From: Clostridia bacterium
GTDB taxonomy: Bacteria > Bacillota > Clostridia > TANB77 > UBA1234
DNA: 26,970 bases
Assembly (NCBI GenBank): GCA_017521465.1
Contig: JAFXCN010000016.1
Location: 1-26,970 of the forward strand
Direction of reading: 5' to 3'
The notes under the pieces were generated by a model that saw nothing but the letters and a program-made list of their open reading frames with translations, was not told where the DNA came from and did no database searches. Shown here piece after piece: positions 13,464 to 26,970 of this stretch. Both the position numbers and the translations under genes were made by a program. Position 1 is the stretch's first letter; the number at the start of each line of letters is the position of its first letter.

Positions 13464-13539
<76 letters not shown>

Positions 13540-13543
13540 GATT

Positions 13544-13618
13544 TGGTGACCCGTAGGAGAGTCGAACTCCTCACTCCGCCGTGAAAGGGCGATGTCTTAA
13601 CCGATTGACCAACGGGCC
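13544..13618 (-). tRNA. tRNA-Glu (anticodon UUC), CCA encoded
   Basis: Minus-strand read: GGCCCGT TGGTCAATCGGTTAAGACA TCGCC CTTTCAC GGCGG ... GGAGTTCGACTCTCC TACGGGTC A CCA. It is close to the canonical Firmicute tRNA-Glu. Confidence 0.9.
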
Positions 13619-13623
13619 ATAGA

Positions 13624-13699
13624 TGGTGAGCCATCCGCGATTCGAACGCGGGACAACTTGATTAAAAGTCAAGTGCTCTGCCAACTGAGCTAATGGCCC
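13624..13699 (-). tRNA. tRNA-Lys (anticodon UUU), CCA encoded
   Basis: Minus-strand read: GGGCCAT TA GCTCAGTTGGCAGAGC A CTTGA CTTTTAA TCAAG ... CGCGTTCGAATCGCG G ATGGCTC A CCA. Confidence 0.9.
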
Positions 13700-13871: not shown

Positions 13872-15293
13872 CTATCTTTCTACTACTTCTTTCTTTTGTA
13901 TCACATTTCCATTTACTCTCAGTTTTTCTTCGAGTTCCCCCTGATATCTTTTTTCAAATTGTCTCGATAACGTACCACCTCTAGGCCATTGAATCCTTGA
14001 ACTTCCTTCTTTAAAAATAAAATCCAAGTCTAGTATAACCAATTCGCCCGGTCCTAATTCCTCTACTTGCTTATCTTCATCAAATCCTACATTATCATGA
14101 TGTACCTTTTCAATACCTTTAAAATGAACTCTATTACTTTTTAAAAGTCTTCCAACATTACTTTTTTTAGCATCCGTCCAAATCATCCCTTCTTCTCTAA
14201 GTTCCTTATAAATCATATATAATTCTTCTTCTGCAGGAGGTGTACTTACATCACATTTTTCTAAAATTTCAATATTTACTGGCTGTTTTATTCCAAGTGC
14301 ATTACACGAATTTTGAACGGTTCTAACAATTGGTTGTAAAAATCTTTTTGAATTTTTGGGAATACCATATGCTAACGGTGGTCTTCCTATTTTTAAAACT
14401 TTATCTCCAACCTCAAAGACATTGGCAAAACCACCCTTTGAAAGGTGTCTAATCTCAGAAGGTGCAACTTGTTCATTTTTTACAAGATCCTGTATCATCA
14501 AAACCAACATTTCTCTTACATTTGATTGACCATCTTCTATTGTATCGCTTATTTTTACTGGAGAGTTCTGTCCTAACATTTCTTTGGCAATATCATTAAT
14601 TCTAGAATCTACTATTTCATTTAAACCCTTCGTATCTACACCAGCATTTCCTAATTGTTCCAAAGTTTTTAACGGTGAATTTGTAACAGAAACTAAAGTA
14701 GCGGCATATTCGCTCAAAAAAGCTACTCCTTGTTCATCTTTTTTTATTTCTTCAATATAACCAGTTACATCGCTTGGATGAATACTGCCTGTTCGTACAG
14801 CATTAGCTAACACAGCCATATATTCTTCTCTAATTTCTTCTCCATAGAAGAACCCACCATTATTTTTAAAAAATAATGCTGATAAATCCACTTTATCCCT
14901 ATCTATTTTCCCATACAATTCTGCAACATTTCCTGTTAATAATTTATCTGAATATTCAGCGGCTTTAAGATTTTCAATTATTGAATACGAAACCCCGGGA
15001 TAACTTCTGTTAAGTAGTTCTATAATACTTTCTAAAGAATTTTGGGCAGCACCAAATACTAACTCTGCTATTTTAGAATCTTTTCCGCATTCTTCCAATA
15101 CTGTCCTAAATTCTGAAGGATCCATTTGTGATATTATATCTCCAAAATTTTTCAAAACATATTTAGCAGTATCTTTTCTCCAGAAATCTATTCCCTTTCT
15201 TTTTGGTTCTGTTAAAGTTTTTATCTGTTTAATCATCATATACCATGAAAATTCACCATTTTCTATTGCCTGCTTAATTTTAGGATTTACCAT
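13872..15293 (-). CDS. Two-domain protein: a ~290-aa helical N-terminal domain of unknown function plus a ~180-aa minimal protein-kinase-like C-terminal domain
   Basis: ATG 15293 with AAGGAG 7 nt upstream. The C-terminal region has three kinase motifs in canonical order. They are LSKGGFANVFEVGDKVLKI (Gly-rich loop plus VxxK, about 14380-14450), IWTDAKKSNVG (D-x-K-x-x-N catalytic loop, about 14161-14190) and LVILDLDFIF (DFG-like, about 14021-14046). Confidence 0.8.
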   Translation of the reverse strand: MVNPKIKQAIENGEFSWYMMIKQIKTLTEPKRKGIDFWRKDTAKYVLKNFGDIISQMDPSEFRTVLEECGKDSKIAELVFGAAQNSLESIIELLNRSYPGVSYSIIENLKAAEYSDKLLTGNVAELYGKIDRDKVDLSALFFKNNGGFFYGEEIREEYMAVLANAVRTGSIHPSDVTGYIEEIKKDEQGVAFLSEYAATLVSVTNSPLKTLEQLGNAGVDTKGLNEIVDSRINDIAKEMLGQNSPVKISDTIEDGQSNVREMLVLMIQDLVKNEQVAPSEIRHLSKGGFANVFEVGDKVLKIGRPPLAYGIPKNSKRFLQPIVRTVQNSCNALGIKQPVNIEILEKCDVSTPPAEEELYMIYKELREEGMIWTDAKKSNVGRLLKSNRVHFKGIEKVHHDNVGFDEDKQVEELGPGELVILDLDFIFKEGSSRIQWPRGGTLSRQFEKRYQGELEEKLRVNGNVIQKKEVVER

Positions 15294-15357
15294 CTTTAAC
15301 TCCTTAATTATACATTTTATATGTATAAAGTTTATCACAAATCAAACTACTTTATAT

Positions 15358-15410: not shown

Positions 15411-15602
15411 TTATTTATTTGCTTCATTAAGTTTATTAACTAATTCGTCAACATCAATTCCGTGTACAGCACAAGCTTCTTCAAGAGATTCAGCAGATGC
15501 TGCAGGACAACCTAAACAATGCATCCCAGCTTCTAATAAAATTGGAGCTAAATCAGGGTTGATTTCTAATACTTCTCTTATTATAGTTTCTTTTGTTATC
15601 AT
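15411..15602 (-). CDS. DUF1858-type small redox/disulfide protein (hybrid-cluster-protein-associated family)
   Basis: [14 protein letters not shown]....IL...[20 protein letters not shown]...L...LN is the family pattern and includes CLGC. ATG 15602 with GGAGGTG 6 nt upstream. Confidence 0.85.
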
Positions 15603-15730
15603 TCTCTTCACCTCCATTTTCACTATCTTACTTTACACATTTTTTAGCCAAAAGTCAAGATATTATTGCTTTGCCCGTCTTTTTGTCGAATTTTATCGAA
15701 CGGTTTTTACCCCTTTTTTATAAAAAAATC

Positions 15731-15758
15731 TAGACATTAAAATTTTTAATGCTATAAT
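15731..15758 (+). promoter_or_regulatory. Extended -10 promoter of the T4SS-like / primosome operon
   Basis: TAGACA - 16 nt (ending TGc) - TATAAT, about 25 nt upstream of the first RBS. Confidence 0.65.
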
Positions 15759-15781
15759 CCACTTAAAAGGTGGTGATAATT

Positions 15782-16045
15782 TTGAAGATATCACATTGCT
15801 ACCTTTGCTTATTTCTAATAACTTTTTTAGTTCCACTCATTTTGAACTCTATATTATCTTTTCAAGCAATTTTAAATTTATTCTTTTATTTTGTAATAAT
15901 TCATTTCGTTGTTTCATGTTATATTGTTTATTCATTGTTTGAGATTAATATTATGCACGAAAAGCAGGGCTCAAAACTTATTCTAAGCAAAGGTAAGATT
16001 TTGTCTGATAGGAGTGATTACGATTATAAATTCCAAACTCATTAG
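15782..16045 (+). CDS. Small two-TM membrane protein (about 87 aa), first gene of the operon
   Basis: AAAGGTGG lies 8 nt upstream of TTG 15782; the track start is GTG 15770. It has two long hydrophobic helices. It overlaps the next ORF by 32 nt in another frame. Confidence 0.6.
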   Translation: MKISHCYLCLFLITFLVPLILNSILSFQAILNLFFYFVIIHFVVSCYIVYSLFEINIMHEKQGSKLILSKGKILSDRSDYDYKFQTH

Positions 16046-17687
16046 TTCAAAATATTTTTTTATGCTTACTTTTATGATTTGCGGGGTAGTTTTTAACTAT
16101 TTATTATTTTTAAAACTATTCACCAAACACTCGATAAGCTTTATCCTCCTTGGCAACACATTTGACATTAATTCTTCTCTCTGGGAAGTTATAGCAATTG
16201 TTTATTTCCTAAGTGTTATTATTTCATACTTTTCAATTTCATATACTCTTTCAAAACATCTATTTAAAAACTTTTCTCCCTCAACTCCTGCCCAACATTA
16301 CGAAAACAGCAAAGCACATTTATTTATAGGTACTGATATAGAAAGTGATACACCGATTATTATTCCAGAAAAAGGACTTTATCAAAATATTCTTATAACC
16401 GGAACAATAGGTACTGGAAAAACATCTTCTGCCATGTATCCTTTTACAAAACAACTCCTCGAAAAAAATATTGGAATGTTAATATTAGATGTAAAAGGAA
16501 ACTTTCACACTAAAGTCCTCGAGTTTACCAAACTGCTAAATAAAAAAGTAACTGTTATTGAATTGAATGGTAAATATACTTATAACCCACTAGACAAACC
16601 AAATTTAAAACCTGCTATACTTGCCAATCGACTCAAAACAATTCTTACTTTGTTTTCAAACAAAAACACCTCAGATTCATATTGGCTTGATAAAGTTGAG
16701 TCGTATATCTCAGAATGCATCAAGCTGTGTAGGTTATACAACGACAAATATGTAACTTTTCTTGAACTTCACAAATTAATTAATTCTCCTTCATATCTTG
16801 AAGAAAAAATTTCCTATGTTAAAAACTTATTTTTAAGCGGTAGGTTATCTGATTCTGAAGTTTTCGATTTCAGCACTTGCATAGATTTTTTTAGAAATGA
16901 GTATGCTCATCTTGATTCAAAAGTTCTATCTATAATTCAATCTGAAATTACAAGAATAACTCAAATCTTTGTTAACGACCTCGATGTATCAAACACTTTT
17001 TGCCCTCCTAAAGATAAAAATACTTTTGAAGGTTTTCATAATTTGAAAGATGATATTGTTGTCTTAAATATGAATGTAGCAGAATATCGCAATCTTGCAA
17101 AAATTATAGCAAGCTATTTAAAACTTGATTTTCAATCTGAAGTATTAATGCGTTTATCTAAAAACACTCAGACACCAGTAGCATTTATATGTGATGAATA
17201 TCACGAATATGCAACAGAAAATGATGCAGATTTCTTTTCCCAAAGCAGAGAAGCTAAATGTATAAATATTGTTTCTACCCAAAGCTATACTTCTCTTCTA
17301 AATTGTATGAATAATCAGAATGCTGCAAAAGTTATTATACAAAGTTTAGTAAATAAAATTTGGTTTAGGACTGACGATATGTTTACTATTGAAGAAGCTC
17401 AAAAACAATTAGGCAAAGAAGATAAAACCAAAATTAACAGAAGTATTTCTGAAAACGCAAAAGAAACAAAATACAATTATCTTTTAAAAACTTTTAAATC
17501 TGACGGTTCAAATTTATCTGAAAGTATTAGTACAAATGTATACCACGATTACATTTATGATTTCAATACGTTTTCTAGAGATTTAAAAACTTTTCACGCA
17601 ATTTGCTTTATATCTACTGGCTTTGAAATTTTAAAACCTAAAGTAGTAAAACTATCCCCTATAAGCTCAATACATAAATTAATTTAA
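16014..17687 (+). CDS. Type IV coupling protein-like ATPase (VirD4/TraG/TraD family), membrane anchored
   Basis: The N-terminus has two to three TM helices. Walker A is ILITGTIGTGKTSS (about 16399-16430). Walker B and the TraG-D_C-like block are VAFICDEYHEYA...FFSQSREAKCINIVSTQSYTSL (about 17181-17290). The only start in the open frame is GTG 16014, so the start is uncertain. Confidence 0.8.
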   Translation: MITIINSKLISSKYFFMLTFMICGVVFNYLLFLKLFTKHSISFILLGNTFDINSSLWEVIAIVYFLSVIISYFSISYTLSKHLFKNFSPSTPAQHYENSKAHLFIGTDIESDTPIIIPEKGLYQNILITGTIGTGKTSSAMYPFTKQLLEKNIGMLILDVKGNFHTKVLEFTKLLNKKVTVIELNGKYTYNPLDKPNLKPAILANRLKTILTLFSNKNTSDSYWLDKVESYISECIKLCRLYNDKYVTFLELHKLINSPSYLEEKISYVKNLFLSGRLSDSEVFDFSTCIDFFRNEYAHLDSKVLSIIQSEITRITQIFVNDLDVSNTFCPPKDKNTFEGFHNLKDDIVVLNMNVAEYRNLAKIIASYLKLDFQSEVLMRLSKNTQTPVAFICDEYHEYATENDADFFSQSREAKCINIVSTQSYTSLLNCMNNQNAAKVIIQSLVNKIWFRTDDMFTIEEAQKQLGKEDKTKINRSISENAKETKYNYLLKTFKSDGSNLSESISTNVYHDYIYDFNTFSRDLKTFHAICFISTGFEILKPKVVKLSPISSIHKLI

Positions 17688-17692
17688 TAATT

Positions 17693-17793
17693 ATGGAAGT
17701 TCTATTAATGTGGTCCTTTTTTGTTTTTTCTATTAGCCCCCTTATCCGAAAAACATCATCCCCATTTTTGGGCCACATTAATAGAGCTTCCAT
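17693..17793. repeat. Near-perfect 23-bp inverted repeat separated by ~54 nt, in the gap between the ATPase and pilin-like genes
   Basis: atggaagttctattaatgtggtcc (17693-17716) pairs with ggccacattaatagagcttccat (17771-17793). There is one mismatch and one bulge. Confidence 0.8.
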
Positions 17794-17810
17794 ATAAGAA
17801 AGGATTTATT

Positions 17811-18125
17811 ATGAAAAAAACATTGATTTTAATTTTATTATTTCTATTTTTACTCACAAGCGTATCTTATTGCGCTTCAGATCCTAAACTTATAAAAACT
17901 ATAAATAGTGGCCTAACTAAGATAAAAGATTGGATTATAAAACTTTCGACTCCTGCAGCTGCAGTAGCCATTGGAACTGGAATTCTTATGAAAAAGTTTA
18001 GTTTCGGCGATGAAGATAGGATCGTTGCTGGTAAAAGATTAATTAAAAGCACAATATTTTCTTATGCTTTTATACTTTGCGTAGATTTAGTATTAAGCAC
18101 AATTCAAACATTAGCAAAAGGATAG
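17811..18125 (+). CDS. Secreted or membrane small protein with VirB2/TrbC pilin-like topology (tentative)
   Basis: ATG 17811 with AAAGGA upstream. The signal peptide is MKKTLILILLFLFLLTSVSYCA/SD. Two hydrophobic helices (PAAAVAIGTGILM and STIFSYAFILCVDLVLSTI) are separated by a basic loop. Confidence 0.75.
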   Translation: MKKTLILILLFLFLLTSVSYCASDPKLIKTINSGLTKIKDWIIKLSTPAAAVAIGTGILMKKFSFGDEDRIVAGKRLIKSTIFSYAFILCVDLVLSTIQTLAKG

Positions 18126-18134
18126 TGATTTTAT

Positions 18135-19019
18135 ATGGAACCTGTTTCAGAAGAAATTATAAATGAAATAGATATTGGTTCAGTAATTGTTGATACCATA
18201 AATTCTCTTTGTCACTCACTCTTTTCTTCTATAGACAATGCAATATATCCAATTTTAGATGACATCGTTTTTATTTCTCCAGATATAACAGAAACTAATT
18301 ATTTAGAAAGAATTTTTGGTACAAATTCAAACACAGGACTTCTTATTCTTGCAAATTCTCTCATCCTAGCATTTATATTGTATTATTCCGTACGAAGATT
18401 TATTTCATTCTATGCAGGAAATGAAGTTGAATCACCATATATATTTTTGATAAAAGGAATATTTATAACTATATTAATGAATTTTTCGTTAGAACTTTGT
18501 AGTACGCTAATTTCTTTTACTTATGAAATCACAAATTTTATCACTGCACTCGGCCAAAATATTTTTAGCAAAGAAGTCTCTTTCGCGTCTTTAATAAATA
18601 TTTTAAATTCATCTTTCGCATCAGACTTCAATGTATTTTCGTTAGATGGTGTATTAAGCGGAATGCTTTCTGTTTCATCATTCTCTTTAATAATTAGTTT
18701 TGCTCTTCGATATATAATGATTAAAGTTTTAGTTCTTTCCGCTCCTTTTGCTTTTTTGTGTCTTCTTAACAAAAGCACAACCGGATTCTTTAAAAGTTGG
18801 TATAGAAGTTTGCTTTCGCTTTTACTGGTCCAAATATTAATTGCACTAATTTTACTTTTGCCTTATGCAATTATCAAAGATTCTTCTTCAGAAATATTAA
18901 ATAAAATTTTAATTATTGGTGCTATAAACGCACTGCTAAAGTCAGGACAATTTATCAAAGAATTTATGAGTGGTATTGGCATAAGTAGTAATTTTCAAAG
19001 TCGGAGTTTCTGGTCTTAA
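18135..19019 (+). CDS. Polytopic membrane protein, VirB6/TrbL-like (tentative)
   Basis: It has 5-6 TM helices. The central block FALRYIMIKVLVLSAPFAFLCLL....GFFKSWYRSLLSLLLVQILIALIL resembles the TrbL/VirB6 core. It starts 9 nt after the previous stop. Confidence 0.75.
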   Translation: MEPVSEEIINEIDIGSVIVDTINSLCHSLFSSIDNAIYPILDDIVFISPDITETNYLERIFGTNSNTGLLILANSLILAFILYYSVRRFISFYAGNEVESPYIFLIKGIFITILMNFSLELCSTLISFTYEITNFITALGQNIFSKEVSFASLINILNSSFASDFNVFSLDGVLSGMLSVSSFSLIISFALRYIMIKVLVLSAPFAFLCLLNKSTTGFFKSWYRSLLSLLLVQILIALILLLPYAIIKDSSSEILNKILIIGAINALLKSGQFIKEFMSGIGISSNFQSRSFWS

Positions 19020-19040
19020 ATCAATTTTCTCGAGGTGATT

Positions 19041-19340
19041 ATGTTTAAATTTATATTTCCTTTAAATTACAAATATCCCGAAAAGCTATTAGGTATTATT
19101 GAATATAGAATTCTACTCCCCTTATGCTGCTATGCTGGACTACTCTTTTTGATTTTACATAATTTGAGTTTTGCTTTTTTTACTTCAGCAAGCATTTTCA
19201 TAATTTTGTTCTTTCCAATCTTTTTACTATCGATTAATAATATTAATGGTGAGCCAATTTACTCGTTTATTTTTGCTTTTATTTGCTTTCATTTAAATTC
19301 AAAAGTTTATTTGTTTAAAAATGATTGCAAAATTATCTAA
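19041..19340 (+). CDS. Two-TM small protein, PrgI/TcpE (VirB3-like) pattern (tentative)
   Basis: ATG 19041 with GAGG 5 nt upstream. YKYPEKLLGIIEYRILLPL, then a TM, a second TM and NINGEPIYSFIFAFICFHLNSKVY match the layout of PrgI-family conjugation proteins. Confidence 0.7.
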   Translation: MFKFIFPLNYKYPEKLLGIIEYRILLPLCCYAGLLFLILHNLSFAFFTSASIFIILFFPIFLLSINNINGEPIYSFIFAFICFHLNSKVYLFKNDCKII

Positions 19341-19374
19341 AAAACGATATTATTGGTACACGGGGTGAGTAAGA

Positions 19375-20343
19375 ATGAATTTTGAGCAAAATCTATCAAT
19401 GCTTTTTTCAGATTTAAATGTACCAGAAGTATTCATAACAGAGCATTTCTGTATGGCAAACGGTGACTATATAAAAGTATATATTTATTGCATGTTTTTA
19501 TGTAAATATAATAGTGAAATTTCTCCATTAGATCTTTCTAAGAAATTATGTTTGCCATTAAAAACTGTTGAACTTGCCCTTAAATATTGGGAAGAACAAG
19601 ACATTATAATAAAAAAGCAAAATACATACATATTATCTGATTTAAAGAAGCTTGAAGTGGATAAATTATATAAACCAAAAGTAACCTCTTCTTTAGAAGA
19701 TGCTTTAGATACAAATTCAAAAAATGTTCTTAGAACTCAAGCCATAAACGAAATCAATTCTGTATTTTTCCAAGGAGTAATGTCTCCTACATGGTATACA
19801 GATATAGATACACTATTTGTTAAATATCAATTTGATGAAGATGTTATGATTTCTTTATTCCGTTATTGTTTTGACAGACAAGCTCTTCATAAAAAATATC
19901 TTTTCACTGTAGCTGAAGCTTGGCATTCAAACAACATTAAAAACATGAACGATTTAGAAAAATATTATCTTCAATACGAAAAATCAAATCAAATGAAAAA
20001 AACTATCTGTAAAAAACTGGGGATTACAAGAAAACTTTCTCAATACGAAGAAGCCTATGTAGACAGATGGACTATTGATTATAATTATCCGATTGATATT
20101 ATAGAACTTGCTCTTAAGAAAACCACATCAAAAGCTAATCCAAGCTTTGATTATATCGATAAAATAATCACTGATTGGCACGAAAAGAAATTAGTAACAG
20201 CTGATGAAATTCAAGCTTATTCAAAAGAGCAAAAAGAAAAATATAAAACAGTTAAAGAAGTAGCAAAAACAATTACTCCCAAATATACAGATGGAGAAAC
20301 AAATCAATATAATGATTTAAGTAAATTTTATGCAAATATATAG
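19375..20343 (+). CDS. DnaD/DnaB_2-domain replication initiation and membrane-attachment protein (Bacillus DnaB/DnaD type)
   Basis: The N-terminal winged-helix segment is GDYIKVYIYC...SPLDLSKKL.LPLKTVELALKYWEEQ.II. Two DnaB_2-type repeats follow: SPTWYTDIDTLFVKYQFDEDVMISLFRYC...YLFTVAEAWHSNNIKNMNDLE and EAYVDRW..DYNYPIDIIELALKK......PSFDYIDKIITDWHEKKL. Confidence 0.85.
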   Translation: MNFEQNLSMLFSDLNVPEVFITEHFCMANGDYIKVYIYCMFLCKYNSEISPLDLSKKLCLPLKTVELALKYWEEQDIIIKKQNTYILSDLKKLEVDKLYKPKVTSSLEDALDTNSKNVLRTQAINEINSVFFQGVMSPTWYTDIDTLFVKYQFDEDVMISLFRYCFDRQALHKKYLFTVAEAWHSNNIKNMNDLEKYYLQYEKSNQMKKTICKKLGITRKLSQYEEAYVDRWTIDYNYPIDIIELALKKTTSKANPSFDYIDKIITDWHEKKLVTADEIQAYSKEQKEKYKTVKEVAKTITPKYTDGETNQYNDLSKFYANI

Positions 20344-20357
20344 AAAGGATTTTAAGT

Positions 20358-21344
20358 ATGCAGTCTGATGTTTTTAAAACAATCGAACGAAATTTTGAAT
20401 ACAAAAGAAACACTGCTATAAAAGATGCAAATGCATTAAAAGAAGAAACATATGAAAAATTTCCAAGATTAAAAGAGATTGATAATTTAATATTCAAATG
20501 TGGCCTTCAAGCTTCTAAAGCTACAATTGCCAACGCATCAGACAAAGACACAATTCTTTCTGAATTAGAAGAAAAAATGTCTGACCTAAAAAAAGAACGA
20601 GATGAAATATTAATCAAAAACAACATTTCGTTAGATCCAAAGTTTGAATGTACTAAATGTAATGATTCGGGATATGAATTATTATCAAACGGAACAAAAA
20701 TGTGTACTTGTTTCAAACAAGAATTAATTAATGAAGCATATAATAAATCTAATTTATATAGACTTCAAGAAGATACTTTTTCTTCGTTTGATTCTGCACT
20801 ATTCTCAGACGAAGTTAATACACAAAAATATGATGCAAGTATCTCGCCAAAGCAAAACATCGAACGAATAAAAAACATTTGTGAAGAATTCATTTCAAAC
20901 TTTGATAATCCATCTCAAAAAAATTTATTATTCACAGGAACACCTGGAATTGGCAAAACATTTTTATCAGGATGCATTGCAAACGAATTATTAAACAAAG
21001 GATACACTGTTTTATATCAAACAGCACCAGTTTTATTAGATCGTATTTTTGAATATAAATATAACAACAAAGAAACATCAAAAGAATTATATGACAATTT
21101 ATTTAATGTAAATTTATTAATTATTGACGATTTAGGCACAGAAAATCTTACATCAGCCAAATTCTCTGAACTATTCACAATAATTAATTCAAGATTATTA
21201 AATCCACAAACGAAAACAATAATATCAACAAATCTATCACTAGAAAACCTTGCAAAAAACTATGATGACAGAATATTATCTAGATTAATAGGAAACTTCA
21301 ATATATGCAAATTTTTTGGAGAGGATCTGAGATTAAAAAGATAA
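20358..21344 (+). CDS. DnaI/DnaC-type helicase loader ATPase with an N-terminal Cys-rich (zinc) module
   Basis: C.KCNDSGYE.......CTCF, then Walker A LLFTGTPGIGKTFL, Walker B LLIIDDLGTE, sensor STNL and the C-terminal ILSRL. Confidence 0.9.
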   Translation: MQSDVFKTIERNFEYKRNTAIKDANALKEETYEKFPRLKEIDNLIFKCGLQASKATIANASDKDTILSELEEKMSDLKKERDEILIKNNISLDPKFECTKCNDSGYELLSNGTKMCTCFKQELINEAYNKSNLYRLQEDTFSSFDSALFSDEVNTQKYDASISPKQNIERIKNICEEFISNFDNPSQKNLLFTGTPGIGKTFLSGCIANELLNKGYTVLYQTAPVLLDRIFEYKYNNKETSKELYDNLFNVNLLIIDDLGTENLTSAKFSELFTIINSRLLNPQTKTIISTNLSLENLAKNYDDRILSRLIGNFNICKFFGEDLRLKR

Positions 21345-21376
21345 AAAAGCAGGTGTTTTGACACCTGCTTTTTTAT
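21345..21376 (+). terminator. Rho-independent terminator ending the seven-gene operon
   Basis: Stem agcaggtg / cacctgct with a 6-nt loop, followed by TTTTTTAT, directly after the stop codon. Confidence 0.85.
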
Positions 21377-21379
21377 TTC

Positions 21380-21560
21380 TGATACTTCCGTGCGTATCGA
21401 AGCTTCCGAAGGAAACAATTCCGCTGACGGAAAAAGGCGAATCGCCACCCGCGTAGCGGCCGTCTGCGGAAACGAACTGCATTACAGCAATTTGCTATGA
21501 TGCTCACGCATTCAGTCTACGAACCAATCGCACTTCCTTTTTACATGCGACCGATTCGTG
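21380..21560. other. G+C-rich non-coding segment with several short GC hairpins; candidate structured RNA or foreign DNA remnant
   Basis: My hand count gives about 65% G+C for 21421-21480, against about 27% in the adjacent dnaI-like gene. Local stems: ttccg-ctga-cggaa, ggcg-aat-cgcc, ccgc-gta-gcgg, and gcattacagca-att-tgctatgatgc. No ORF has an RBS on either strand. Confidence 0.5.
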
Positions 21561-21568
21561 TCCACATC

Positions 21569-21597
21569 TTTACAAAACTCCCATTTTGTGGTATTAT
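21569..21597 (+). promoter_or_regulatory. Extended -10 promoter of the 59-codon ORF
   Basis: TTTACA - 17 nt (ending TGg) - TATTAT. Confidence 0.6.
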
Positions 21598-21685
21598 GTA
21601 AATGTATAGTTTTGTTTATACATTTTTCCTCGTTTCTCACCCGACTCTCTCAATCTTCAACTTACTTTAAGGAGGAACAAACACT

Positions 21686-21865
21686 ATGGCTAAGAAGAAT
21701 CGGAAGAAAAGTCTCCCTACCGGCGCGAAGGAAAGCACTGAAGGACGCGTGAACCGCATCAACAATACCCGAAAGTGCTGTACGTTGGTGCACCAGCCCA
21801 AAAAGGGGTGCGGATACCGCCGGAGGGACAAGTACCCCCATCGCTCGTGGGAGGGAGCGTACTGA
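21686..21865 (+). CDS. Small (59 aa) highly basic Cys/His-containing protein, G+C-rich gene; not in the supplied ORF track
   Basis: ATG 21686 is preceded by TAAGGAGG 8 nt upstream. Hand translation: MAKKNRKKSLPTGAKESTEGRVNRINNTRKCCTLVHQPKKGCGYRRRDKYPHRSWEGAY, stop TGA 21863-21865. It has a promoter upstream and a GC-rich terminator 5 nt downstream. Of the 8 Arg codons, 7 are CGN and none is AGA. Confidence 0.7.
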   Translation: MAKKNRKKSLPTGAKESTEGRVNRINNTRKCCTLVHQPKKGCGYRRRDKYPHRSWEGAY

Positions 21866-21870
21866 TTCGG

Positions 21871-21899
21871 GCACCCCGGTGAGGGGTGCTTTTGTTTTA
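21871..21899 (+). terminator. Rho-independent terminator of the small ORF, overlapping the gyrA stop codon
   Basis: Stem gcacccc / ggggtgc with loop ggtga, followed by TTTTGTTTTAT. Confidence 0.85.
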
Positions 21900-24329
21900 T
21901 TCTTCTATTTCTTCTGGACTTATTTTAGCAACGCTTACTACTTTTCCGCCATCGTTTGATCTCATTAAAGTTACACCTTGTGTTGATCTTCCTAAGATGC
22001 TAACTTCTTTTACTTCTAAACGAATTACTATTCCTGTGTCTGTAATTAGCATTACATCATCATCGTCTGTTACTATCTTTATTCCAATTACTTTTCCTGT
22101 TTTTGGTGTCGTTTTGTATGTTATTACACCTTTTCCAGATCTATTTTGAACTCTATATTCTTCTAGTTCTGTTCTCTTACCAAATCCATTTTCTGTAATT
22201 GCAAGCAAGCATGCTTTTTCGTTATATATTGGTTCCATTCCAACAACATAATCGTCGTCATCTAATTTTATTCCAATTACACCTTGTGAAACTCTACCAA
22301 CCGAACGAACATCACTTTCAGCAAATGTTATTGACATTCCTTCATGAGTAACCATTACAATATTTCTTTCGCCGTCTGTTAATCTAACATCTATTAACTC
22401 ATCTTCATCTTTTAATGCGATGGCTTGTAATCCTGATTTTCTTACATTGTTGTATTCCATTAACTTAGTCTTCTTTATCATTCCACCACGAGTTGCCATT
22501 AATAAATATTGATCTTCTGTGAATGCTTCTATTGGAATAACAGCTGTTACTCTTTCATCTCCGCCCAATTGTAATAAATTTACTAATGCTGTTCCTTTAG
22601 CCGTTCTACCAGCCTCTGGTACTTCGTATCCTTTTAATCTATATGCTTTACCTTTGTTTGTGAAGAACATTATTGTGCTATGTGTTGATGATGTGAATAT
22701 TTGCTCCACAAAATCTTCTTCTCTTGTTTGGATACCTGTAATACCTCTTCCACCTCTTCTTTGAGATCTATATGTATCTATTGGCATTCTCTTAATATAT
22801 CCAAAGTGTGTTAAAGCAATTACTGTATTTTCTTCTTTTATTAAGTCTTCAGCTTCAAATTCACCTTCAGCAGCGATTATTTGTGTACGTCTGTCATCAC
22901 CATATTTGTCTTTCATTTCAATCAATTCTTCTTTTACTATTTGACACACAAGTCTTTCGCTAGCTAAGATTTCTCTAAATCTTTCGATTTGTTTCATTAA
23001 CTCAGCATATTCTTCTTCAATTTTTTCACGTTGTAATCCTGATAACGTTTTTAATCTCATTTCAAGAATAGCATTTGCTTGGATTTCGGAAAGATTAAAT
23101 CTCTTCATTAATCTTTCAGCAGCATCATCATAAGCAGCTCTAATAATTGCGATTACTTCATCAATATAATCTAATGCAATTTTTAATCCTTCTAAAATAT
23201 GTGCTCTTGCTAATGCTTTATCTAAATCGTACTTTGTTCTTCTAACTATAATATTCTTTCTATGATCAATGTAGTGCTCTAACATTTCACGAAGTGTTAA
23301 TATTTTTGGTTCGTTATTTACAAGTGCTAACATTATTGCACCAAACGTATCTTGCATTTGTGTATTTTTTAATAATTGGTTTAAAACTATTTTAGGATTT
23401 GCATCTCTCTTTAATTCAATAACAATTCTCATACCATCACGGTCTGATTCATCTCTTAAATCTGAGATTCCTTCTATTCTTTTATCTTTTACTAAATCAG
23501 CAATATTTTCTACAAGTCTTGCCTTGTTTACTTGGTATGGAAGTTCATTTACAATAATTCTATATCTTCCATTTCCATGTTCTTCTATCTCTGTTTTAGC
23601 TCTAACAATAATTTTTCCTCTACCTGTTAGATATGCATTTCTTATTCCTTCTCTTCCAACTATAATACCACCCGTTGGGAAGTCTGGTCCTTTTACTATT
23701 GATAATAGTTCGTCATCTGATACATTATCTTCATCTATTAAAGCAACAATCGCATTTACTATTTCTGTTAAATTGTGCGCTGGTATATTTGTTGCCATAC
23801 CAACAGCAATACCTGAAGAACCATTTATTAATAAGCTTGGAACTCTTGCTGGTAAAACAGTAGGCTCTTGCAATTTTTCATCATAGTTTGGCATGAAATC
23901 AACTGTGTTTTTATCGATATCAGACATCATTTCTGATGAAATTTTTGGCATTTTTGCTTCAGTGTATCTCATTGCGGCTGCGCTGTCGCCATCTACGCTA
24001 CCAAAGTTACCATGTCCATTTACTAAAGGATATCTCAAAGAAAAATCCTGTGCCATTCTTACAAGAGCATCATATACAGAAGCATCTCCATGTGGATGAT
24101 ATTTACCTAAAACGTCACCAACGATAAACGCTGATTTTCTGAATGGTTTATCAGGTGTTAATCCTAATTCATTCATAGAATATAAAATTCTTCTATGAAC
24201 CGGTTTTAAACCATCCCTTACATCTGGCAAAGCTCTTTGCACGATAACACTCATTGCATAGTCAATGTAAGATTTTTTCATCTCTTTTTCAATGTCAACA
24301 AGTATAACTTTTTTTGCATTTTCTCCCAT
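21897..24329 (-). CDS. gyrA: DNA gyrase subunit A
   Basis: Canonical N-terminus: [34 protein letters not shown], and the catalytic region AAMRYTE. The GyrA box [10 protein letters not shown] is at the start of the C-terminal beta-pinwheel, which argues for GyrA rather than ParC. Confidence 0.97.
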
Positions 24330-24866: not shown

Positions 24867-25562
24867 TTATGCTAATTTTTGGCACAATTCTATTTCAAAC
24901 TGCGATAATTGTTTATTGTTTTTGTTTTTATAAAGCTCACATTCATTTAAAATTTGTTTTCCTCTCTGTATAACATCTTCTATCGGCATCACTTTATTTA
25001 AATCTGTTTTTAATGTTTTAGATACCCTATCGATTGTTTTTTCATCATTTTCAGAGAATGCTTTTTCTATTTGAATACATTTTTTATTTATTCTTGAAAT
25101 TGTATTTTTTTGCTTTTCCATCACAGTTTTTAATTCATCTTCAAATGCTCTATCCAAAATTAAATTTTTACCAGACTTTATTGTATTTTTTACTGACGTA
25201 GGAATTTTAAAAGCCGATACTGCAAGATCAATTCCTTCTGAAAGCCCTTTTTTTAGATCACCTTCTTTTATTGCCTCAAGTATACCTTTTATATCATTAA
25301 ATGTACTTACTTTCATCCCCATACTTTTCATTCCACTTTTAAGCGCTGTTTCTGTAACATCATTTGCAATTCCTTTAAAATCAAACTTCTTAATTCCATC
25401 TTTTACTACATCCTTATATTTATCAGGAATTTCTATTAATTCTCCAATTTTATTTACTGCATTAGAAAATGCATCTCCAATATTTTCAAATATATTTTTA
25501 GATTCTTCCGTTAAAATAATTTCATTATTTTTTTCTAAATTTAATTCTAATACTTTCTCCAT
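24867..25562 (-). CDS. Hypothetical soluble, Lys/Glu-rich helical protein (231 aa), last gene of the Tad-like operon
   Basis: Long ORF that starts 11 nt after the T2SSF gene stop. It has no TM segment and no motif I recognise. Confidence 0.75.
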   Translation of the reverse strand: MEKVLELNLEKNNEIILTEESKNIFENIGDAFSNAVNKIGELIEIPDKYKDVVKDGIKKFDFKGIANDVTETALKSGMKSMGMKVSTFNDIKGILEAIKEGDLKKGLSEGIDLAVSAFKIPTSVKNTIKSGKNLILDRAFEDELKTVMEKQKNTISRINKKCIQIEKAFSENDEKTIDRVSKTLKTDLNKVMPIEDVIQRGKQILNECELYKNKNNKQLSQFEIELCQKLA

Positions 25563-25573
25563 AATTATCCTTT

Positions 25574-26509
25574 CTACTCGTCTACTTCTTTAACTTTTTG
25601 TGATAAAAATACTAATAACCACATACTAATAAAATTCCAATATAATATTAATTTTCCGACAATACTTTTTTGCATAATCATATAATTTTCTTTATTGTTA
25701 CCAATAAAAGAAAAATAGACTATTAAATCTAGTAGCACCAAAATCATTAATACTATTCTTGCTCCTTTTGTTTCCTCTTTTCTAGCTAGCTTTTCTTTTT
25801 GAATTATAGAAATCATATAGTAGCTTTTATTTATTAATTCGGCAAAAGAGCCTCCGCTTATGTAGCAGTTTTTTATATTACTAAAAAGTTTTTCCAATTC
25901 TTTTATCTTTATTTTTTCATTTAAATTATCTATTGCATTTTCAAATTTTATTCCACTATTTATTTCTATTAGAAATTTATTAATGTATGATTGCAACGGC
26001 TCTATTGTTTTTGATTCTTTAATAGCATATATAATGTCGTTATTTATTTGTGTATAATTTTTTAGTTGCAACAAAAAATTAGGTATTATTTTTTCAATTT
26101 TGTCATCATTATAATCTGCAATTAATTTTAATATCACAATAGGTGTAAACACTGTTGGCATCGCAATTATAAACGATAACACTCGTGCTTCAAATATTTT
26201 TAACGCAACTATATAACACAGTATTGAAAACATCAAACCTATAAAAATTAAACTCAATGGATTCATTAATATTCCTTGCTTTATTCCTGCCCTTTCAATT
26301 AAAATTCCTAATTTATGTATTGGATTAATTTTTGAATTAATTTTTATTTTTTTATTCTTTTTGTAATACTTCATTAATTCATCATGATATTTTTCATTTT
26401 TTAAAGCTAAATATTTTGATAGTTTTACAGTTAATTTTTCTTCTATAATTTTTATTGAGTATTGATAACAAACCGTAAATATTAAAACAAATAAAATAAT
26501 ATTTATCAT
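25574..26509 (-). CDS. Type II secretion system F (TadB/TadC-like) platform membrane protein
   Basis: The layout is an N-terminal TM, a helical cytoplasmic T2SSF-like domain (IPNFLLQLKNY......I..AI.......L..YIN.F..EINSG..FE.AI..L) and C-terminal TMs. Its start overlaps the ATPase stop (TAATG). Confidence 0.8.
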   Translation of the reverse strand: MINIILFVLIFTVCYQYSIKIIEEKLTVKLSKYLALKNEKYHDELMKYYKKNKKIKINSKINPIHKLGILIERAGIKQGILMNPLSLIFIGLMFSILCYIVALKIFEARVLSFIIAMPTVFTPIVILKLIADYNDDKIEKIIPNFLLQLKNYTQINNDIIYAIKESKTIEPLQSYINKFLIEINSGIKFENAIDNLNEKIKIKELEKLFSNIKNCYISGGSFAELINKSYYMISIIQKEKLARKEETKGARIVLMILVLLDLIVYFSFIGNNKENYMIMQKSIVGKLILYWNFISMWLLVFLSQKVKEVDE

Positions 26510-26970
26510 TATGCCATCGCCCTCTCTATTTCTTTTTTATATAAGTCTATTTTGGTTTTTACTCTTTCTAATGGTTTTCCAATTTTTTTAAATTTCCCAA
26601 TTGATTTTCCTTTTTCATATTTTTCAACCTTAAATTCAAATAATGGATTGTATGCGATATCGTCATTTTCATTATCATAATAAACTTCTGTAATTTCTTG
26701 AACCTTAAAATTACTCATATAAATAACAATATCGATTGACATTGATAGAAGTTTTCTTAAATATTTATCTGTATATGTTTGTGCCTTACTGTCTCTTTTC
26801 ATAAGCGTTACTAATCTATCAACTGTATTTTTACTGCTATCAGAGTGAACTGTTGCATATCCTCTATGTCCTGTTGAAATGGCATCTAAAAACACCATTG
26901 CTTCCTCGCCTTTTAATTCTCCTATTACAATAACATCATTAGACATTACTAGAGAATGTGCTGTAAGCAT
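26509..26970 (-). CDS. CpaF/TadA (VirB11/T2SSE superfamily) secretion ATPase, C-terminal part only (5' end beyond window)
   Basis: The frame is open to the window edge. The conserved block is DVIVIGELKGEEAMVFLDAISTGHRGYATVHSDS...VDRL (the GE.RG.EA ... TGH ... T.H motif). Confidence 0.85.
   Translation of the reverse strand: MLTAHSLVMSNDVIVIGELKGEEAMVFLDAISTGHRGYATVHSDSSKNTVDRLVTLMKRDSKAQTYTDKYLRKLLSMSIDIVIYMSNFKVQEITEVYYDNENDDIAYNPLFEFKVEKYEKGKSIGKFKKIGKPLERVKTKIDLYKKEIERAMA

Follow-up and report, generated by a model that had tools for sequence, protein, structure and literature searches.

What a run of type IV secretion genes is doing directly in front of two replication genes, and whether it could form a complete secretion system, are the questions raised by a locus on contig JAFXCN010000016.1 (assembly GCA_017521465.1). 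The window (the whole stretch of 26,970 nucleotides analyzed here) has a low GC content (~0.27–0.39) and matches a 125-kb metagenomic contig of an uncultured Clostridia bacterium at 99.98–99.99% identity. Between 15.7 and 21.4 kb it carries seven closely packed open reading frames (ORFs) in the same orientation on the + strand (Table 1). Five of these (g1 to g5, the cassette) encode membrane proteins, among them a coupling ATPase of a type IV secretion system (T4SS); the last two (g6 and g7) are dnaD and dnaI. The original prediction, made from the letters of the window, read this block as a T4SS-like cassette without VirB4 that might couple a DNA motor to helicase loading. Our analysis suggests that the seven-gene block is probably the VirD4/VirB2-like/VirB6-like/VirB3-like half of a two-operon, chromosomally fixed and domesticated monoderm-type T4SS, the other half of which would be a TrsD-VirB4 operon on the far side of gyrA.

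A VirB4 operon beyond gyrA

VirB4, relaxase and integrase had all been reported missing from the window, and none of the three was found within its 26,970 bases. Sequence past the right end was read from contig L094 (99.98% match to the window over 11,397 nt). A VirB4 gene lies there, 2.1 kb past the window's right edge and 7.7 kb away from the terminator of the cassette, so the description of the locus as “VirB4-less” did not survive and was an artefact of the window edge; absence claims made from a 27-kb window can be pure edge effects. The gene belongs to an operon that starts ~4.5 kb past the edge and converges with the cassette. Its product matched the NCBIfam models NF045971 (VirB4-like, CD1110 family; 7.5e-87) and NF045975 (Mycoplasma VirB4 of integrative and conjugative elements [ICEs]; 1.5e-75) as well as TraC-F-type (3.7e-43) and TIGR00929 (4e-22), scored above cut-off for P-loop_TraG (1.4e-28) and AAA_10 (4e-16), and matched the Thermoanaerobacter VirB4 structure PDB 4AG5 (E = 2.5e-43), with an intact Walker A motif (GASGSGKS) and DE Walker B. 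The adjoining 168-aa protein matched TrsD and the N-terminal domain of Mycoplasma VirB4, and one Mycoplasma VirB3-VirB4 fusion model is covered in turn by g5 (positions 25–98), the TrsD-like protein (98–276) and VirB4 (278–893). The VirB4 of a T4SS is thus present, as a protein encoded outside the window.

The operon closes with a gene for a 231-aa protein (u231), homologues of which (23–45% identity) lie between VirB4/ParA and gyrA in many loci. The protein has no transmembrane segment and no family match. It was considered as a VirB8-like component and rejected, as it lacks a transmembrane segment and looks soluble and helical. Three further genes, TadZ/CpaE-, VirB11/TadA- and TadB/C-like (25574–26970 and L094 7448–10936), were found inside the TrsD-VirB4...u231 operon only in the lineage of the window; other lineages have VirB4 followed by u231 directly, or by ParA and then u231. 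The VirB11/TadA-type ATPase matched the VirB11 model TIGR02788 at 2.3e-46, below its cut-off.

Components of the cassette

The ATPase g2 scored above Pfam cut-offs for TrwB_AAD_bind (8e-11) and TraG-D_C (3e-7). Its AlphaFold2 (AF2) model (predicted local distance difference test [pLDDT] score 89) places two transmembrane helices at the N terminus, followed by a RecA-like core with a predicted all-alpha insertion at residues 200–330, and in Foldseek searches Cagbeta (2e-13) and TrwB (2e-11) ranked first, with HerA, DotL and VirB4 behind. Walker A, Walker B and R412 did not vary in any of 44 family members (44/44). With an N-terminal transmembrane anchor, a RecA-like domain bearing Walker A/B and an inserted all-alpha domain, g2 is a membrane-anchored VirD4-type coupling protein (T4CP), in agreement with the VirD4/TraG-type assignment first made from its motifs. 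A reading of the locus as a defense system was dropped, the PADLOC matches being weak and of the generic P-loop kind. The peptide g1, upstream of the ATPase, had no family match in profile searches of Pfam and NCBIfam; its orthologues from 22 non-identical loci share a cytoplasmic tail (HEKQGSKL), and its ratio of nonsynonymous to synonymous substitution rates (dN/dS) is 0.07–0.19.

For g3, the proposed VirB2-like identity was borne out by matches to PF18895 (T4SS_pilin) in all 32 orthologues (32/32; best 1.3e-7) and to TrbC in 11/32, and its loop MKKFSFGDEE is nearly invariant. The VirB6/TrbL-like assignment of g4 likewise held up: Pfam TrbL matched 12/39 orthologues (best 7.8e-7) and, with a structure modelled from database homologues (AF2, pLDDT 73), the seven best Foldseek matches in the PDB were all TrwI/VirB6 of R388 (E = 2e-3 to 8e-2). 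The PrgI/VirB3-like call for g5 stood only in part. The two-transmembrane topology is as described and the matches recur, with PrgI matching 7/35 orthologues weakly (best 0.02) and the N-terminal transmembrane module of the Mycoplasma VirB3-VirB4 fusion model (NF045975) matching 9/35 (best 0.0034). At such E values the assignment, made by sequence similarity, is weak but recurrent. In the closest relatives, g4 and g5 form one in-frame ORF of 401–417 aa (P0393, P0396–P0402); at the g4/g5 boundary (19017–19043) the window has a TAA stop where locus L006 (11029–11334) has AAA, and the internal GAGGTG ribosome-binding site and ATG of g5 are retained in fused and split forms alike. Both the topology of g5 and its fusion to the VirB6-like gene fit the role of a VirB3-type partner. 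Gene callers passed over g1 and g5 as small ORFs; conservation in relatives, dN/dS of 0.04–0.19 and, for g5, its own conserved GAGGTG ribosome-binding site indicate that both are real genes. In locus L031 (10100–10889) the VirB6-like gene appears as two overlapping ORFs, which may reflect a frameshift, a pseudogene or misassembly, and dnaD-dnaI do not lie beside the cassette there.

Distribution and inheritance

Relatives of the ATPase were sought with a 14-sequence alignment, each GTDB species being represented by one genome, and occur in at least 575 species-level genomes; the best 80 of these were all metagenome-assembled genomes (MAGs) of uncultured Clostridia/Eubacteriales. The order of the divergent DUF1858 gene (−) followed by T4CP, pilin, VirB6-like and VirB3-like genes (+) is kept in every sufficiently long locus, and in most of them gyrA follows a few kb past dnaD-dnaI, so the position beside gyrA, which the original prediction had marked for testing, is indeed conserved in relatives. 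Across relatives in at least 80 species-level genomes, GyrA is 68–87% identical, and the identity of the ATPase rises and falls with it (Pearson r = 0.85). Relatives with an ATPase of 35–38% identity retain the six-gene order amid other housekeeping flanks (mutL/miaA, ksgA, ruvX, valS), while in the lineage of the window the flanks are mreBCD, PBP2, minC and gyrA, with minC, the PBP2 gene and mreDCB beyond the TrsD-like gene. All cassette genes have dN/dS of 0.03–0.19, a range shared by dnaD and dnaI, and dS is alike across genes. By these sequence comparisons, a large clade of uncultured gut Clostridia has passed the system on vertically, under strong purifying selection.

The same data bear on whether the block is part, or a decaying remnant, of an ICE, plasmid or prophage. 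Firmicute phages and ICEs commonly have DnaD paired with an IstB-like loader as a replication module, and the tRNA cluster 2 kb upstream of the block would also suit an integrated element. At 28–32% identity, moreover, the ATPase family grades into coupling proteins whose surroundings resemble those of mobile elements, one with a CagE/VirB4 gene nearby (L090) and one with a gene for single-stranded DNA-binding protein (L089); the small proteins beside the T4CP at these two loci have no detectable homology to g3–g5. Set against this, no integrase, relaxase, other mobile-element gene or repeat-bounded structure was found at the locus, relaxase being absent from ~37 kb around it and from the loci of relatives. 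The locus is conserved in the at least 80 species-level genomes above, and every gene, including the unannotated small ones, is under purifying selection. Relatives of the ATPase were found in only 19 of 72,556 plasmids, all at ≤31% identity, and in none of 50,697 phage records; the gene neighborhoods of plasmid relatives (Agarilytica pSU3, a Clostridioides megaplasmid) were uninformative. Given the housekeeping flanks, the conservation, the purifying selection and the near-absence from plasmids and phages, a mobile element, whether intact or in decay, is a very improbable explanation, and the view that this is no conventional ICE or prophage is upheld. The case that had been set aside as fatal to the first reading, a complete ICE just outside the window, came true in one respect, in that VirB4 does lie there; its setting, however, is chromosomal and housekeeping, with neither relaxase nor integrase.

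Do the two operons form one machine?

In at least 11 loci outside the window's lineage, no more than 15 kb separates the TrsD-VirB4 operon from the cassette, and the arrangements vary. VirB4-ParA-u231-gyrA stands beside inverted dnaI-dnaD and the cassette in L039, the order VirB4-u231-gyrA-dnaI-dnaD-cassette occurs in L057 and L063, and TrsD-VirB4-ParA lies directly upstream of the cassette on the same strand in L064. In a metagenome scan seeded with VirB4, L101, L110, L114, L127, L135, L147 and L153 showed the convergent arrangement in full. TrsD precedes VirB4 in 45 of the 50 loci with room for it.

One alternative is that the operons are unrelated neighbors, the cassette working alone or with another partner while the TrsD-VirB4 and Tad-like genes build a separate pilus or secretion device. 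The operons are indeed unlinked in many lineages, the Tad-like genes are embedded with VirB4 and not with the cassette, and in Patescibacteria T4CP homologues are mostly encoded away from virB4, one of them being non-essential (PMC12102498). On the other hand, VirB3-, VirB6-, VirB2- and VirD4-type genes are on one side and VirB4 and TrsD on the other with no component duplicated, VirB3 and VirB6 are known partners of VirB4 (PMC12857230), three proteins drawn from both operons cover consecutive segments of one Mycoplasma fusion model, and the co-localization recurs in differing arrangements, including the same-strand order of L064. This complementarity, the known partnerships and the recurrent proximity argue for a single machine, and we consider two independent devices improbable.

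Several observations weigh against a single two-operon T4SS. That the operons work together is something we infer from proximity, complementary gene content and known partnerships. The VirB4 score for NF045971 (292 bits) is below the equivalog cut-off (325), TM-scores of the g4 model against TrwI are low (0.31–0.41), the VirB3-like call for g5 is weak (best E = 0.0034–0.02), and VirB8-like and VirB1-like components were not identified at the locus. The four deepest relatives of the cassette have no VirB4 within 8–9 kb. Among VirB4-anchored metagenome loci with enough sequence, many of them near-duplicates of one human-gut lineage, dnaI/dnaD follow gyrA in only 6/22. Finally, what is transported, and in which direction, is pure conjecture.

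If the two operons do form one T4SS, an MPF_FATA-like conjugation module may have been domesticated in an ancestor, replication genes having then split its operon or had it rearranged around them. Two membrane-anchored motors, a VirB6-like channel, a VirB3-like anchor and a pilin would build a translocon in the cytoplasmic membrane, which would carry a macromolecule from cell to cell or into and out of the medium. The archaeal Ced/Ted systems suggest, by analogy, that chromosomal or environmental DNA is the likeliest substrate, a proposal that we put forward tentatively; protein effectors or a contact-dependent exchange, as suspected for Patescibacteria, are a somewhat fainter possibility.

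Linkage to dnaD and dnaI

The identities of both replication genes were confirmed. g6 matched DnaB_2 at 2.5e-26 (in two stretches) and TIGR01446 at 6e-10, with dN/dS of 0.017–0.076; g7 matched NCBIfam PRK06835 at 1.7e-101 (340 bits against a cut-off of 215) and IstB_IS21 at 1.4e-17, and an N-terminal Cys cluster (ECTKC...CTC) can be seen in its sequence. Both scored above curated cut-offs and show the strongest constraint within the block. A DnaD-domain protein adjoining an AAA+ loader with an N-terminal Cys region has the makeup of a primosome pair, and most likely it is with these two genes that the cell loads its own helicase.

dnaD lies directly 3′ of g5 in 54 of 61 informative loci, and the linkage of dnaD-dnaI to the cassette persists where ATPase identity is merely 35–38%. 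After g5, cell-envelope or cellulase genes take the place of dnaD-dnaI in six loci, and in one or two dnaD-dnaI are inverted and on the other side. The association is thus more persistent than ordinary synteny, yet separable. The g5-dnaD gap is 34 nt in the window (31–34 nt in the window and L088), with a median of 138 nt in relatives compared with 12–25 nt within the cassette; a gap of that median size makes an internal promoter before dnaD possible. At least partial reliance on read-through from the cassette promoter may hold dnaD-dnaI in place, and dependence on such read-through and on position would lock the gene order without any mechanistic partnership.

These figures bear on the more far-reaching proposal that the locus is a VirB4-independent membrane module for handling DNA, in which T4CP and channel hand DNA straight to DnaD/DnaI, so that, for instance, replication could be primed or restarted on single-stranded DNA that has been translocated. 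Linkage in most loci, even where the flanks are wholly reshuffled, the short gap in the window and L088, and the want of VirB4 within 8–9 kb in the deepest relatives would fit such a module. Nevertheless, VirB4 and TrsD are encoded close by here and in at least 11 other loci, the cassette occurs without adjacent dnaD-dnaI in 7/61 loci, most relatives have a promoter-sized gap, and the loader is an ordinary PRK06835-family protein. We therefore regard a VirB4-independent module as distinctly unlikely, and a mechanistic hand-off from translocon to primosome as scarcely more credible; the data do not need the mechanical coupling of a T4CP motor to helicase loading that the original prediction had offered as one of its options.

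A broader version would keep the domesticated two-operon T4SS and make it a core housekeeping machine of the origin region in a large clade of low-GC gut Clostridia, comparable to that of Patescibacteria, with the T4CP/VirB6/VirB3/pilin operon functionally tied to DnaD-DnaI. Either DNA imported or exported through the translocon would be passed to the helicase-loading primosome, or expression of the machine would be coupled to replication initiation. We think this unlikely; were it true, conjugation machinery would have been domesticated independently a third time, here with a direct link to the replisome. No description of dnaD-dnaI directly behind T4SS membrane genes was found in the literature searched.

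Comparison with known systems

The nearest analogue is the chromosomal T4SS of Patescibacteria, which comprises VirB4, TrsD, PrgI, VirB6 and VirB2-like pilins, is mostly relaxase-less and lies near replication genes; its T4CP is mostly encoded apart from virB4, and one T4CP is non-essential while other T4SS genes are essential (PMC12102498). Compared by parts list and location, both systems have monoderm MPF_FATA-like components (with PF18895/PF04956 pilins in Patescibacteria [PMC12102498]) and both are chromosomal, clade-wide, mostly relaxase-less and beside DNA-replication genes. They differ in host, which here is Clostridia (Bacillota), in replication neighbors (dnaD, dnaI and gyrA here, dnaA and dnaN there) and in pilin genes (single here, in arrays there). 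Here, unlike in Patescibacteria, the T4CP shares an operon with the pilin, VirB6-like and VirB3-like genes, and the lineage of the window adds VirB11/TadA-like, TadZ-like and TadB/C-like genes.

The archaeal Ced/Ted systems, a second precedent for domestication, are chromosomal derivatives of conjugation machinery with a VirB6-like channel, a VirB2-like pilin, small two-transmembrane proteins and a VirB4-family ATPase, and without relaxase (PMC9905601). The present locus resembles them in each of these components and in its relaxase-less neighborhood. However, Ced/Ted are archaeal and UV-induced and lack a T4CP, their proteins share no detectable sequence similarity with those described here, and DNA import, demonstrated experimentally for Ced/Ted, is a putative function of the clostridial system.

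Among Firmicute MPF_FATA systems (pCF10 Prg/Pcf, pIP501/pGO1 Trs and the CD1110 family of Clostridioides difficile conjugative transposons), VirD4-type T4CP, VirB6-like (PrgH/TrbL), VirB4 and TrsD are shared with the locus, as would be VirB3-like (PrgI) if the weak call for g5 holds. The likeness comes from model matches, the best NCBIfam models for VirB4 being those of the C. difficile CD1110 and Mycoplasma ICE families, and from the TrsD-like partner. In contrast to those systems, the locus is no mobile element, relaxase, VirB1-like hydrolase and VirB8-like protein were not found at it, and the operon is split around the housekeeping genes gyrA, dnaD and dnaI. Its VirB2-type pilin and VirB11-like ATPase are further components that Gram-positive T4SSs are said to lack (PMC12857230, PMC12102498). 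g6 and g7 resemble the clostridial helicase-loading pair (DnaD/DnaB_2 with a PRK06835 loader), from which they differ in lying directly behind T4SS membrane genes.

In the literature searched, no T4SS of this kind has been described in Clostridia. Domesticated conjugation machines have so far been documented in hyperthermophilic archaea (Ced/Ted) and in Patescibacteria, where the genes are essential for the epibiotic lifestyle. Here, a vertically inherited and apparently relaxase-less T4SS is present in hundreds of species of abundant uncultured gut Clostridia. If it works as we infer, domestication would extend to mainstream Bacillota, the system would be a candidate source or sister of that of Patescibacteria, and members of the gut microbiome could be exchanging DNA or protein by a route so far unrecognized. 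The conserved linkage of the system to dnaD, dnaI and gyrA is an oddity both concrete and testable.

Transcription signals and neighboring features

The seven genes form a co-oriented, operon-like block between a promoter-like site and a hairpin terminator, as originally described. Junctions from g1 to g7 are −32, 123, 9, 21, 34 and 14 nt (n = 6); the short or overlapping spacing with a single 123-nt gap is as claimed, although seven gaps had been counted where six junctions exist. By its sequence, the candidate promoter is the best match of the region to consensus (11/12 plus TG), while promoter-like sites overall were not enriched over shuffled sequence (41 versus 35.3 ± 6.3). GC skew on the + strand is negative over the entire window, and cumulative skew falls monotonically. 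Going by the skew, replication may meet the cassette and dnaD-dnaI head-on, as lagging-strand genes, and run co-directionally with gyrA and the VirB4 operon, although strand inference from skew is confounded by coding-strand composition.

Table 1. Positions of the cassette, the TrsD-VirB4 operon and adjacent features (window coordinates unless marked L094)
Feature	Position	Strand	Remarks
tRNA-Thr/Glu/Lys cluster	13464–13699
488-aa protein	13872–15338	−	Between tRNA cluster and DUF1858 gene; kinase-like D-x-K-x-x-N and DLD motifs by eye
DUF1858/hybrid-cluster-protein-associated redox-disulfide mini-protein	15411–15623	−	DUF1858 1.5e-22, TIGR03980 2.9e-27
Sigma-70-type promoter-like site, extended −10	15731–15758	+	TAGACA-16-TGcTATAAT, consensus match only
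g1, 87-aa peptide, two transmembrane segments	15782–16045	+	3′ end overlaps ATPase start
g2, VirD4-type coupling ATPase (T4CP), 557 aa	16014–17687	+	Alternative start ATG 16062
g3, VirB2/TrbC-type T4SS pilin-like protein	17811–18125	+	Signal peptide and two hydrophobic helices
g4, VirB6/TrbL-like polytopic membrane protein	18135–19019	+
g5, VirB3/PrgI-like protein, two transmembrane segments (weak assignment)	19041–19340	+
g6, DnaD/DnaB_2 replication-initiation/restart protein	19375–20343	+
g7, DnaI/DnaC-type helicase loader	20358–21344	+	N-terminal Cys cluster
Bidirectional-looking intrinsic terminator	21341–21376		16-bp GC-cored hairpin, A and T runs either side
59-aa basic Cys-containing ORF (MAKKNRKK...)	21686–21865	+	Strong AAGGAGG ribosome-binding site
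gyrA	21897–24329	−	Pfam DNA_topoisoIV and DNA_gyraseA_C; between two convergent T4SS operons
u231, 231-aa soluble helical protein	24867–25562	−	Last gene of TrsD-VirB4 operon
TadB/C-like (T2SSF-like) membrane protein	25574–26509	−	T2SSF 0.008, weak
VirB11/TadA(CpaF)-type ATPase, 428 aa whole	26509–26970	−	3′ part, cut at window edge; T2SSE 1.7e-23
TadZ/CpaE-like ParA	L094 7448–8725	Same as VirB11/TadA-like gene	Upstream of VirB11/TadA-like gene
VirB4, 605 aa	L094 5609–7426 (= window 29084–30901)	Same	Outside window
TrsD-like protein, 168 aa	L094 5082–5588	Same	Outside window

The DUF1858 gene is divergent from and adjacent to the cassette in 74/78 loci and absent in the four deepest relatives. 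Encoded between it and the tRNA cluster, the 488-aa protein had no family match; it has no homologue in the comparable related loci L004–L085 and is present in contigs of the same organism (L001–L003). Its gene may be a lineage-specific insertion beside the tRNA cluster. On the other side of the block, the 0.5-kb spacer between dnaI and gyrA (21380–21896) has a GC content of ~0.39 (1-kb windows) compared with ~0.28 around it. The 59-aa ORF in this spacer has a promoter-like site with extended −10 (21569–21597) and a strong terminator (21869–21891); the ORF matched nothing in Pfam or Rfam, and the spacer nothing in Rfam.

The closest genome (L006, JAZSHP010000025.1) is labelled Candidatus Fimenecus sp. 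This genus was described from genomes of 50–60% GC (PMC8035907), and at ~30% GC for the locus the label looks doubtful.

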